Shown in pieces: positions 568 through 29,656 of a stretch of 56,700 bases of DNA (its first letter is position 1; each line of letters opens with the position of its first letter). The notes under the pieces were generated by a model. It made no database searches and was not told where the DNA came from. It saw only the letters and a list, made by a program, of their open reading frames with translations. The DNA lies in assembly GCF_003334255.1 (NCBI RefSeq), contig NZ_QOWU01000034.1; one strand, given 5' to 3'. This DNA comes from Escherichia coli (GTDB lineage: Bacteria > Pseudomonadota > Gammaproteobacteria > Enterobacterales > Enterobacteriaceae). The position numbers and the translations under genes were made by a program.

Positions 568-1785
568 ATGTCCCCCATTGAAAAATCCAGCAAATTAGAG
601 AATGTCTGTTATGACATCCGTGGTCCGGTGCTGAAAGAAGCAAAACGCCTGGAAGAAGAAGGTAACAAGGTACTGAAACTGAACATCGGCAACCCAGCCC
701 CGTTCGGTTTTGACGCGCCAGATGAAATCCTCGTTGACGTGATACGCAACCTGCCTACCGCTCAAGGGTATTGCGATTCCAAAGGTCTTTACTCCGCGCG
801 TAAAGCCATCATGCAGCACTACCAGGCTCGTGGCATGCGTGATGTTACCGTGGAAGATATTTACATCGGCAATGGTGTATCGGAGCTTATCGTTCAGGCA
901 ATGCAGGCATTGCTGAACAGCGGGGACGAAATGTTGGTTCCTGCACCAGATTACCCACTCTGGACCGCGGCGGTTTCGCTTTCCAGCGGTAAAGCGGTGC
1001 ATTATCTTTGCGATGAATCCTCTGACTGGTTCCCGGACCTCGATGATATTCGCGCTAAAATTACGCCTCGTACGCGTGGGATCGTTATTATCAACCCAAA
1101 TAACCCAACCGGCGCGGTATATTCCAAAGAGCTTTTAATGGAGATTGTGGAGATTGCACGTCAGCATAATCTCATTATCTTCGCCGATGAAATTTATGAC
1201 AAAATTCTCTACGACGACGCTGAGCATCACTCAATTGCGCCGCTGGCACCTGACCTGCTGACCATTACCTTTAACGGACTGTCGAAAACGTACCGCGTTG
1301 CAGGCTTCCGTCAGGGGTGGATGGTGTTGAACGGGCCGAAAAAACACGCCAAAGGCTACATCGAAGGTCTGGAAATGCTGGCTTCAATGCGCCTGTGTGC
1401 TAACGTTCCTGCGCAACACGCCATTCAGACCGCGCTAGGTGGTTATCAGAGCATCAGTGAATTTATTACCCCTGGCGGTCGTCTTTATGAGCAGCGTAAC
1501 CGCGCGTGGGAACTGATCAACGATATTCCGGGCGTTTCCTGCGTGAAACCTCGTGGTGCGCTGTATATGTTCCCGAAAATCGACGCCAAACGCTTTAACA
1601 TTCACGACGATCAGAAAATGGTGCTGGATTTCCTGTTGCAGGAAAAAGTTCTGTTGGTGCAAGGGACGGCATTCAACTGGCCGTGGCCGGATCACTTCCG
1701 CATTGTCACGCTACCGCGTGTCGATGATATCGAGCTGTCTTTGAGCAAGTTCGCGCGTTTCCTTTCTGGTTATCATCAGCTGTAA
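568..1785 (+). CDS. alaA: Glutamate-pyruvate aminotransferase AlaA (PLP-dependent class I aminotransferase)
   Basis: ATG at 568; 405-aa ORF with aminotransferase class I fold features (NGLSKTY lysine region); protein recognised as AlaA/YfbQ. Confidence 0.93.
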   Translation: MSPIEKSSKLENVCYDIRGPVLKEAKRLEEEGNKVLKLNIGNPAPFGFDAPDEILVDVIRNLPTAQGYCDSKGLYSARKAIMQHYQARGMRDVTVEDIYIGNGVSELIVQAMQALLNSGDEMLVPAPDYPLWTAAVSLSSGKAVHYLCDESSDWFPDLDDIRAKITPRTRGIVIINPNNPTGAVYSKELLMEIVEIARQHNLIIFADEIYDKILYDDAEHHSIAPLAPDLLTITFNGLSKTYRVAGFRQGWMVLNGPKKHAKGYIEGLEMLASMRLCANVPAQHAIQTALGGYQSISEFITPGGRLYEQRNRAWELINDIPGVSCVKPRGALYMFPKIDAKRFNIHDDQKMVLDFLLQEKVLLVQGTAFNWPWPDHFRIVTLPRVDDIELSLSKFARFLSGYHQL

Positions 1786-19012: not shown

Positions 19013-19795
19013 TTAGCCACCATAAACATCAAAATCGAAGTACTTTTTCGCTAATTTCTCGTAAGTACCGTCAGCGCGCATTTCGGCAAAGGCTTTGTTC
19101 AGTGCTTCGCGCAGTTCGTTATCTTCTTTACGCAGGCCCATGCCGGTCCCTACGCCAAACAGTTTTTCATCTTTAACAGACGGGCCACCGAATTTGTAAT
19201 CTTTACCGACAGGTTGTTTGAGGAAACCTTCGCTGGCAGCGACCTCATCCTGGAACGCGGCATCAATACGTCCGGCAGTCAGGTCAGAATAAATGTTGTC
19301 CTGCCCCTGATACGAGACGATTTCAATGCCTTTTGGTGCCCAATGTTCATTACCGAACGTCTCCTGGGTGGTGCCCTGCAATACGCCTACCCGTTTGCCT
19401 TTCAGCGACTCGACTGTCGGCTGAATGTCAGAATTTTTCGCCACCACCAAACGAGAATCGGCAGCGTACAGTTTGTCGGTGAAGGCTATTTCTTGCTGAC
19501 GTTTTTCCGTAATGGAAAGCGATGACATGATGGCGTCAATCTTCTTCGCTTTTAAGGACGGGATTAACGCATCCAGCGGATTTTCGACAAACGTACATTG
19601 CGTATTGATGCGTTTGCATAATTCCTTTGCCAGATCGATATCGAAGCCAACCAGTTCGCCTTGTGAATTTTTTGATTCAAATGGCGCATAGGTCGGGTCG
19701 GTACCGATGCGGATGTTTTGCGGAATCGCAGCAAACGCCGCAGTTGCGCTGGAGAAGGCCAGAACCAGAGAGAGCGATAGCACCAGTTTTTTCAT
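19013..19795 (-). CDS. hisJ: Histidine-binding periplasmic protein
   Basis: 260-aa ORF with signal peptide and periplasmic binding-protein fold; paralogous to argT immediately upstream. Confidence 0.95.
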
Positions 19796-20015
19796 AATGT
19801 CCTCAACTGACAGTCTTTTTATAGGGAATATTTACAGGTTTGTTACACTTATCGTGCCATAAAATTGACCATCAAGGCAAAATATCCCGCCCCGTTAGAC
19901 GTATTATTTTTCATTAAAAATGCTTAAGTATGCATTTCAATGCACCACGATAGTGCAACAAACCTGGCGTGCACCATGATGATCATTCCATCAGGTACAG
20001 CTTCCCAGCGACGTA

Positions 20016-20798
20016 TCAGTCACCGTAGACATTAAAGTCGAAATACTTTTTCGCCATCTTGTCGTAGGTGCCGTCCTGACGCAGCTCGCCAAGCGCCTTA
20101 TTGAAGGCAGCCGTCAGTTCAGCATCATCTTTACGTAGCCCTACACCGGTGCCATCACCGAAGTATTTTTTGTCTTTTACTGATGAGCCAGCAAAGGCGA
20201 AATCTTTACCAGCAGGTTGCTTGAGGAATCCTTCGCTGGCAGCAACTTCATCTTGTAACGCAGCATCCAGACGTCCTGCAGCCAGATCGGAATAGACCAA
20301 ATCCTGGTTGGCATAGGCCACCACATCCACGCCTTTACTACGCCAGGTCTCGTTAGCGTAAGCTTCCTGGGTTGATCCCTGCAGCACACCAACATGTTTA
20401 CCTTTCAGTGAATCCAGCGTTGGCTGAATCGGTGAACCTTTGGCCGCAATCAAACGAGAATCTGCGGCGTACAGCTTGTCGGAGAAGGCAATCTCCTGCT
20501 GACGTTTATCGGTAATGGAAAGCGACGAAATAATAGCGTCGATTTTTTTCGCTTTCAGTGAGGGGATCAGCGCGTCAAAGTCACTGGCAACCCAGGTACA
20601 TTTCACCTGCATCCGTTTGCACATCTCGTTACCGAGATCGATATCAAAGCCAACAAAATCACCTTTAGCATCTTTCGATGAGAACGGTGCGTAGGTGGTA
20701 TCGGTTCCGATACGTACCGTCTCCGGTAGCGCCGCATAGCTGGAAGCCGCTGTGGAGAGACCGACTAACAAAGACAGAGCGAGAATCGACTTCTTCAT
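20016..20798 (-). CDS. argT: Lysine/arginine/ornithine-binding periplasmic protein
   Basis: 260-aa ORF, signal peptide, closely similar to HisJ; recognised as ArgT. Confidence 0.95.
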
Positions 20799-20866
20799 AC
20801 ATAACCCTCAAGTGAAAATGGCTTTTTTATGTTGTGTATTGTGTTGTGTGTTTGCAGGCTCTTTCA

Positions 20867-20882
20867 TGCAGGTCTTATGCCA
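20867..20882 (-). promoter_or_regulatory. Sigma54 (-24/-12) promoter for argT
   Basis: Minus-strand TGGCATAAGACCTGCA: GG and GC separated by exactly 10 nt, matching TGGCAC-N5-TTGCA; about 70 nt upstream of the argT ATG. Confidence 0.7.
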
Positions 20883-21029
20883 TCTTGACGACAACAGTAA
20901 CATTCAACGTTAAATATGTTAATAAGACGTTGCATTATTGTCCTGAAGTTGAAGATAGCAGGTATAGCGGTTGAATCGCAGCGTTTCGATTGAATGGCAG
21001 AAACAAAATGTCGAGGATTTGATCGCGGT

Positions 21030-21056
21030 TGCAAAATTGCCCTGAAACAGGGCAAC
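21030..21056 (-). terminator. Rho-independent terminator after ubiX
   Basis: Minus-strand ttgccctgtttcagggcaa hairpin followed by ttttgc, directly after the ubiX stop. Confidence 0.8.
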
Positions 21057-21063
21057 AGCGGAG

Positions 21064-21633
21064 TTATGCGCCCTGCCAGCGGGCAAAGAGATCTTCAGGA
21101 AGGGTTATCGCAAACTGGTCAAGAACACGATTAACCGTCTGATTTATCACATCATCAAGGGATTGCGGGCGATGATAAAACGCCGGAACGGGAGGCATAA
21201 TCACCGCACCGATTTCTGCCGCCTGAGTCATTAAACGCAGATGGCCTAAGTGCAATGGTGTTTCACGCACGCAGAGCACCAACGGGCGACGCTCTTTCAG
21301 CACCACATCTGCCGCACGGGTCAGTAAGCCATCAGTATAGCTATGGACAATGCCGGAAAGGGTTTTGATTGAACAGGGTAAAATCACCATCCCCAGCGTC
21401 TGGAAAGAACCGGAAGAGATGCTGGCGGCAATATCGCGCGCATCGTGCGTGACATCGGCTAATGCCTGCACTTCGCGCAGAGAAAAATCCGTTTCGAGGG
21501 ATAAGGTCTGGCGCGCTGCCTGGCTCATCACCAGATGCGTTTCGATATCTGTGACATCGCGCAGAACCTGTAATAAGCGCACGCCATAAATCGCGCCGCT
21601 GGCACCGCTGATGCCTACAATGAGTCGTTTCAT
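21064..21633 (-). CDS. ubiX: Flavin prenyltransferase UbiX
   Basis: 189-aa flavoprotein ORF with N-terminal GISGASG motif. Confidence 0.93.
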   Translation of the reverse strand: MKRLIVGISGASGAIYGVRLLQVLRDVTDIETHLVMSQAARQTLSLETDFSLREVQALADVTHDARDIAASISSGSFQTLGMVILPCSIKTLSGIVHSYTDGLLTRAADVVLKERRPLVLCVRETPLHLGHLRLMTQAAEIGAVIMPPVPAFYHRPQSLDDVINQTVNRVLDQFAITLPEDLFARWQGA

Positions 21634-28643: not shown

Positions 28644-29656
28644 TAGTACAGATACTCCTGCACCAGTTTCTCGGCGATTTTTACTGCCATCAGCGCGCCG
28701 CCAAAGCGAACGTTATCGGCCACCGACCAGAACTGGACTTGCTCCGGCATACCGTAGTCATTACGCACGCAGCCAACAGAAAGATGCGGCGTACCCGAAG
28801 CATCACCTACCTGAGTTGGGAATTCGTTCTCTTCAGAGAGCACAATATCTTCGCCTTGAACAAACGCATCACGCGCTTCTTCTGCTGCCAGTGGACGCAG
28901 AGCTTCAAAGTTGACCATCTGGGCATGACCGTAGAATACCGGTGCCTGGACGACGCTAGCCGAAATCATCAGCCCTTCGTCCTGCAGGATTTTGCGTACT
29001 TCGTCAACGATACGACGTTCTTCACGCACGCTACCTTCGCTATCCGGCAGTAACGGCAGCATGTTGAACGCCAGCTGACGCCCGAAGAAATCTTCTTCGT
29101 CAATCGGAATGCCGTTGAGCAATTTCGCACTCTGCCCCGCTAACGCATCGACCGCTTTTTTGCCCTGGGCGGAGGCTGAAATCAGGCTGGTAACGCTGAT
29201 ACGTGATAAACCGCCCTGATCGATTAACGGTTTCAGTGCCGCCAGCAGCTGGCTGGTCAGACTGTCTGGTACGGCGATGACATTCCGGTTCCGGTAATCT
29301 GTCAGTACAAACGGGTTTACTTCCGGCACCACCAGCGGTACGTCGGGTTCGAGAGCAAACAATCCACTGCTGTCGATCACCAGGCAACCTGAGTTGGTCG
29401 CTTCTTCAACCCAGGCAGCGGTAGCTTCTTTGCCTGCGACAAAAAATGCCAGCTGCGCCTGCGTCCAGTCGAATTCAGCGGCATCCTGCACGGTGATTGT
29501 CTTACCACCAAAGCGCAGTTGTTCGCCTGCGCTTTCGTTACGTGCCAGTGCATAAATTTCCCCAACCGGGAACTGACGTTCAGCCAGCGTTTCAAGCAGG
29601 GCTTCGCCCACAGCGCCAGTTGCGCCCAGGACGGCAATGTTCCAGCCTTCAGACAT
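28643..29656 (-). CDS. usg: USG-1 protein (aspartate-semialdehyde dehydrogenase paralogue)
   Basis: 337-aa ORF with N-terminal Rossmann motif VLGATGAVG and semialdehyde dehydrogenase fold. Confidence 0.92.

Follow-up and report, generated by a model that had tools for sequence, protein, structure and literature searches.

The argT promoter of Escherichia coli and Salmonella, argTp (or "argTr" in the older Salmonella literature), is described as dependent on NtrC and sigma-54, and the element discussed here is the same one; as a sigma-54 promoter it is already published and an ordinary known feature. When nitrogen is limiting, NtrC activates the sigma-54 promoter from which argT is transcribed (PMC6640053), and metabolic engineers have already made use of "argTp" as a strong promoter that responds to nitrogen (PMC7045595). 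ChIP-seq of sigma-54 in strain MG1655 yielded a site upstream of argT, OS22, with an occupancy of 12 times the calling threshold and a predicted start 58 nt from the argT ATG; the supplement of that study scored the site as conserved across many species (cross-species PSSM), and the status of the E. coli argT promoter in EcoCyc was given there as "predicted", not confirmed, in 2015 (Bonocora et al. 2015, PMC4591121). In vitro, the sigma-54 holoenzyme alone selects the argT region in gSELEX with 61% peak height, and this selection does not rise when NtrC is added (61% versus 55%; Shimada 2021, PMC8743547). Salmonella argT (STM2355) has the same core, TGGCATAAGACCTGCATG, which is bound by sigma-54 in ChIP-chip; its wild-type to delta-rpoN ratio is 3.5 in the presence of the promiscuous activator DctD250, and it was counted among four operons already experimentally shown to be sigma-54 regulated (PMC3844500). 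For the exact E. coli promoter, neither start-site mapping nor an rpoN or ntrC mutant test was found in the accessible literature. An "argT" which we take to be, most likely, a tRNA-Arg gene at another locus also appears in older work. The "E. coli argT promoter" in question, that of Hsu et al. 1991 (cited in PMC7408454), was disregarded as evidence on the argT considered here.

The second close comparison is with glnAp2. Both promoters have a sigma-54 core of the -24/-12 type, are activated by phosphorylated NtrC when nitrogen is limiting and have a sigma-70 promoter next to them. At glnAp2, a pair of strong NtrC sites has a spacing comparable to about 30 bp, and NtrC can act there over a distance and from positions on both sides of the promoter. 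The upstream regions of argT in other genera, with two dyads about 30 bp apart, resemble this strong pair, whereas E. coli argT has no strong proximal NtrC sites (best score 9/14), and the NtrC ChIP signal is 5.4-fold at argT as against 71-fold at glnA. A third described group is class II of Schumacher et al. 2015 (argT, mdfA, topA), where sigma-54 represses an overlapping sigma-70 promoter; argT is a named member of this class but differs in also being an activatable Ntr promoter, repression being its second role.

The window, that is, the whole stretch of 56,700 nucleotides that was analysed, is E. coli chromosome with the gene run hisPMQJ-argT-ubiX-purF; its open reading frames agree with the gene order cvpA-purF-ubiX-argT-hisJ-hisQ-hisM of a K-12-type record. 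A query of 701 nt over the argT site matches 5,426/5,426 complete E. coli genomes, many of them at 100% identity, and the RefSeq annotation beneath it is ubiX and argT. Coordinates of MG1655 (U00096.2) are obtained by adding 2,405,015 to the window coordinate. According to the list of open reading frames and the RefSeq annotation, the argT coding sequence, for a lysine/arginine/ornithine periplasmic binding protein, occupies 20016-20798 on the minus strand, with the A of its ATG at 20798. The spacer between ubiX and argT is 265 nt long and non-coding, and the sigma-54 motif lies inside it on the argT strand.

Read on the minus strand, 20882..20867 is TGGCATAAGACCTGCA, i.e., TGGCAT-AAGAC-CTGCA. 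The -24 element TGGCA occupies 20882-20878, the T after it is followed by a variable spacer of 6 nt, and the -12 element TGCA occupies 20870-20867. An earlier, sequence-only reading of this DNA had placed a TGGCAT-N6-TGCA on the minus strand within 20862-20882, with exact GG-N10-GC spacing and about 70 nt upstream of argT. Each of these particulars was recovered: the gap between GG (20881-20880) and GC (20869-20868) is exactly 10 nt, and the final base of the motif, 20867, lies 69 nt from the ATG. The element thus has its GG and GC doublets 10 nt apart in a TGGCAC-N5-TTGCW-like context, is oriented towards argT, lies in non-coding DNA and stands at a plausible distance from the gene (predicted start 58 nt from the ATG). 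At the -12 region it reads CTGCA, as opposed to the TTGCA or TTGCT which predominate among published sigma-54 sites.

How much such a match means by itself was assessed against chance. TGGCAT-N6-TGCA occurs once in the window where 0.22 occurrences are expected, and 22 of 100 shuffles contain at least one; the bare GG-N10-GC pattern is uninformative (585 seen, 571 expected). With a leave-one-out weight matrix built from the 134 other sigma-54 ChIP-seq motifs of Bonocora et al. 2015, the argT site scores 13.29 bits, which ranks first among 113,368 window positions and exceeds the score of 32% of the 134 ChIP-seq sites. First-order random sequence matched to the window in size and composition yields 3.6 +/- 2.1 matches that score as well, and the number of these expected to fall, correctly oriented, 40-170 nt ahead of a gene is about 0.21. 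The argT motif is real and well placed, yet its sequence alone is weak evidence, suggestive rather than decisive; its significance derives from conservation and from the published binding data rather than from the score.

For conservation, 80 argT loci were compared, each from a different species and together covering about 25 enterobacterial genera. All 80 have a single TGGCAY-N6-TGCW, located 66-105 nt upstream of argT. In an alignment made independently of the motif, TGGCA and TGC are 100% identical, as compared with 20-60% in the immediate flanks, and the spacing between the two is fixed in 80/80 loci, which is the mark of purifying selection at the contact positions. The spacer itself varies (AAGACC, AAAACC, AAAAAC, AAAACG, GGTAAG, and others), such that the 80 loci hold 22 distinct 17-mers. 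Invariant TGGCA and TGC around a variable spacer are the pattern expected of sigma-54 contacts, not of RNA structure. Within the species, the motif segment is present in 5,423/5,426 complete E. coli genomes, and in the most divergent alleles examined the substitutions all lie outside the 16-mer.

The published binding data fall on the same bases. The 17-mer of OS22, ATGGCATAAGACCTGCA, is identical to that of the window; the peak is at 2425886 and the motif centre at 2425890 on the minus strand, which is window position 20875 (PMC4591121). The coordinates thereby map exactly, and as the window is 100% identical to many E. coli genomes there is no difference between the described element and the present one. 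In Salmonella STM2355, an 18-mer core is identical to that of the window. Published binding and conservation together support the reading as a sigma-54 promoter and mark it as already known. We therefore hold with high confidence that the motif at 20867-20882 (minus strand), the top weight-matrix match, conserved and coincident with OS22, is the sigma-54 (RpoN) dependent core promoter of argT and probably also of a readthrough transcript argT-hisJQMP. The proposal of a sigma-54 promoter upstream of argT in the sequence-only reading is thus borne out by the identical OS22 17-mer, by holoenzyme binding in vitro, by rpoN dependence in Salmonella and by conservation in 80/80 loci; its statement that argT is nitrogen-regulated agrees with the sigma-54/NtrC control given in PMC6640053, with the NtrC ChIP-seq signal and with the response of argTp-lacZ in a glnK mutant. 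By way of this promoter, the uptake of arginine, lysine, and ornithine is coupled to nitrogen starvation.

By the convention of PMC4591121, in which the start is set 19 nt downstream of the motif centre (20875), sigma-54-dependent transcription is predicted to begin at about 20856 (20854-20858, minus strand), which leaves 20856 - 20798 = 58 nt to the ATG. The course of events at this promoter may be envisaged as follows. RNA polymerase with sigma-54 would contact TGGCA at -24 and TGC at -12 and wait there as a closed complex, which under nitrogen limitation would be opened by phosphorylated NtrC with ATP. Transcription from near 20856 would then give an mRNA with a C/A-rich leader of 58 nt, which would in turn come under control of the sRNA GcvB. 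With nitrogen in sufficient supply, the sigma-54 polymerase, bound yet inactive, would lower transcription from an overlapping sigma-70 promoter whose start lies about 32 nt farther upstream. The control by NtrC and nitrogen is taken from the literature; the exact E. coli start site and the DNA sites used by NtrC we infer.

NtrC enhancer sites usually lie no more than about 100-200 bp upstream of the promoters of the Ntr regulon. Scored against the published NtrC consensus TGCACCAnnnTGGTGCA (14 positions), the 220 nt upstream of the E. coli -24 element contain nothing better than 9/14, which is background level; exactly 9/14 is reached at 248 strand-specific positions of the window, i.e., 124 sites counted on both strands. 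That enhancer sites for NtrC could not be picked out by eye, as had been remarked from the sequence, is therefore what the consensus scan finds as well, and upstream of argT E. coli seems to have no proximal NtrC site that can be recognised. In vivo, an NtrC ChIP-seq signal does fall on the promoter (2425861-2425941, window 20846-20926); at 5.4-fold it is the weakest of 21, and having been missed by the peak caller it was added by the authors by eye (Brown et al.).

Strong boxes are found instead on the other side of the gene, in the argT-hisJ spacer (19941-19986), by consensus scan and beneath an NtrC ChIP-seq peak. The first of them, TGCACTATCGTGGTGCA at 19941-19957, scores 13/14 and is the sole site of the window above 11/14; the second, ATGATCATCATGGTGCA at 19970-19986, scores 10/14 and is 29 bp from the first. 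Both are some 0.9 kb from the argT promoter, on its downstream side, and beneath a 23.7-fold peak (2424941-2425021, window 19926-20006) assigned to hisJQMP (Brown et al.). Boxes of at least 10/14 are present in the argT-hisJ spacer of 80/80 loci.

The same spacer holds a sigma-54-like element, ATGGCACGATAAGTGTA, at 19844-19860 on the minus strand (10.96 bits), which begins 65 nt upstream of the hisJ ATG. In Escherichia it has GT in place of the GC at -12, while Citrobacter, Pseudocitrobacter, Franconibacter, and others have the canonical TGGCACGATAACTGCA/T at this position. No sigma-54 ChIP peak is given for this motif in the main tables or the searchable supplementary files of PMC4591121. It may be a decaying NtrC/sigma-54 promoter of hisJQMP.

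In other enterobacteria the upstream side of argT is organised differently. Most genera outside Escherichia have an NtrC-type box there, termed box 1, which scores 10-13/14 and whose position, about 195 nt upstream from TGGCA, is fixed; it is a palindrome, TGCAC-N7-GTGCA, located 30 bp upstream of a second dyad. The NtrC score averages 10.3/14 in the argT upstream regions, compared with 7.7-8.4/14 in coding-sequence controls. Box 1 sits in a segment of about 29 nt directly after the ubiX stop (columns 81-109 of alignment A1), and this segment is missing from Escherichia, the corresponding place in the window being about 21056-21063. The box is intact in Klebsiella, Raoultella, Trabulsiella, Yokenella, Pluralibacter, and Pseudocitrobacter, weaker in Enterobacter and Kosakonia, and degenerate in Citrobacter and Salmonella. 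The evolutionary interest of the locus lies herein, the core promoter being invariant across the family and the activator sites not.

One alternative, a rival for the enhancer step alone, accepts a real sigma-54 promoter and has it activated in Escherichia not from a proximal upstream enhancer but mainly through the spacer sites 0.9 kb downstream by looping, or else by NtrC from solution, at high levels of its phosphorylated form, or from very weak sites; we regard this as possible, if on the unlikely side. In its favour are the location of the only near-perfect NtrC box of the window at 19941-19957, with a second at 19970-19986, under the 23.7-fold peak, and the absence from Escherichia of the box 1 segment that most genera have. 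The spacer boxes are, moreover, without an obvious local promoter, because the hisJ-proximal element has GT at -12 and is absent from the searchable sigma-54 ChIP-seq lists. Action of NtrC from afar and from either side, as at glnAp2, would suit such an arrangement. Against it stand experiments in which the argT promoter functioned away from the spacer: among 12 sigma-54 promoters, a 198-bp argTp fragment (21054..20857) gave the top GFP signal, and an argTp-lacZ fusion moved to the lac locus rose 2.4-fold upon loss of glnK, much as the mRNA of the native gene (3.2-fold), although these ectopic tests are imperfect, since the 198-bp fragment includes the sigma-70 promoter too, one construct was multicopy and it is not stated where the lacZ fragment begins and ends. 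A more explicit version, in which the Escherichia promoter lost its upstream NtrC box at about 195 nt and now relies on the spacer sites as a shared remote enhancer, the hisJ-proximal element having decayed, is offered as a tentative and rather doubtful idea; if true, nature would here offer an example of an enhancer being re-used once a proximal site had been lost.

The sigma-54 promoter of argT overlaps a second promoter, at 20894-20922 on the minus strand, which is recognised by sigma-70. Published data place the sigma-54 motif at +6 to +22 relative to the argT sigma-70 start (Schumacher et al. 2015, PMC4551910), and this puts the start at about 20888. From the sequence, the candidate hexamers are TTAACA for the -35 (20922-20917) and, after a spacer of 17 nt, TACTGT for the -10 (20899-20894), which would likewise lead to a start at about 20888; in the alignment of orthologous loci this -35 is conserved and the -10 is not. 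Consensus scans for sigma-70 promoters and terminators in 20600-21200 gave no match; the -10 of the published sigma-70 promoter is weak, and the hairpin behind ubiX is followed by only four T's. In the presence of rpoN, argT RNA amounts to 23% of the vector control, and in vitro sigma-70 initiation at argT is lowered by sigma-54 (both PMC4551910). It is thus probable that, with nitrogen in plenty, the sigma-54 complex holds down sigma-70 transcription as well.

That the E. coli site is mainly a place where sigma-54 is parked to repress the sigma-70 promoter, with the nitrogen control of argT coming from elsewhere, we consider very unlikely. The roughly fourfold higher argT RNA without sigma-54 in non-limiting medium and the reduced sigma-70 initiation in vitro are in line with it, as are the very weak NtrC ChIP signal at argT and the result that the 220 nt upstream of the E. 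coli -24 element contain no canonical NtrC box. Repression does not exclude activation, however, and Salmonella argT, which has the same core, is rpoN-dependent once an activator is supplied. The ectopic argTp-lacZ fusion tracks the levels of phosphorylated NtrC, and in most of the other genera this core is preceded, at a constant distance, by canonical NtrC boxes, an arrangement that makes sense only for an activated promoter.

That the motif is present by chance, or is conserved for a reason other than sigma-54, e.g., as an RNA element in the longer leader made from the sigma-70 start, is scarcely credible: a random 56.7-kb sequence does yield 3.6 matches equal in weight-matrix score, and the motif does lie within the sigma-70 transcript, but in 80/80 loci exactly the sigma-54 contact positions are invariant with the spacer free and no covariation needed, sigma-54 occupancy is published in two species and in vitro, and a search of 19700-21200 against Rfam (E <= 1) returned zero RNA families.

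Further upstream in the ubiX-argT spacer lies a dyad, box 2, at 21033-21055 (minus strand), seen by RNA folding and in the conservation profile. It reads TTGCCCTG-TTT-CAGGGCAA followed by TTTT, with its centre 164 nt upstream of the T of TGGCA; the RNA folds with -15.1 kcal/mol, and between genera the stem shows compensatory changes (T-A to C-G). Box 2 is probably the intrinsic terminator of ubiX. At the corresponding position the aligned Enterobacter sequences have no T-run. Its match to the NtrC consensus is 8/14 in E. coli and 12-13/14 in Raoultella terrigena (L050) and "Enterobacter sp. 10-1" (L051). The E. coli dyad (TGCCCTGTTTCAGGGCA) was considered as a cryptic NtrC site and rejected, for it fails at 4/8 of the most conserved core positions and its compensatory changes are terminator-like.

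Two further blocks of the upstream region stand out in the conservation profile and the alignment as near-invariant, GCAACCGCGATCAAATCCTCGACATTTT at 21005-21032 and the A/T-rich TGCAACGTCTTATTAACATATTTAACG at 20908-20934 (both minus strand); they lie between the dyads and the core promoter, and across about 25 genera their conservation is above that of any NtrC box. The latter has its centre some 65 nt upstream from the predicted start and includes the sigma-70 -35 hexamer; it could be a site for DNA bending or for an architectural protein. Scans of the argT upstream region for IHF (WATCAANNNNTTR, at most one mismatch) and Nac (ATA-N9-TAT) sites gave no match, and the best match to an ARG-box there has 5 mismatches.

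Other sigma-54-like matches are found elsewhere in the window, at 1244-1259 (+), 42048-42064 (+), and 29058-29074 (-), e.g., TGGCACCTGACCTGCT and CTGGCACAACATCCGCA, scoring at most 12.6 bits. The published high-stringency list of sigma-54 ChIP sites for this interval of the genome includes none of them, their number is below random expectation, and they probably reflect chance.

The 5' leader of argT as predicted from the sigma-54 start (20799-20856, minus strand) is conserved in orthologues. Its 58 nt contain a Shine-Dalgarno sequence, GAGGG, at 20809-20805 and a C/A-rich tract, CAAACACACAACACAATACACAACA, at 20854-20830, itself conserved in orthologues, and they are predicted to be largely unstructured. 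The gene is a target of GcvB via the seed R1 of this sRNA; the targeting has been verified in Salmonella, and for E. coli it is listed as conserved (PMC9299463). The C/A-rich tract of the leader is the type of site which the GcvB R1 seed targets.
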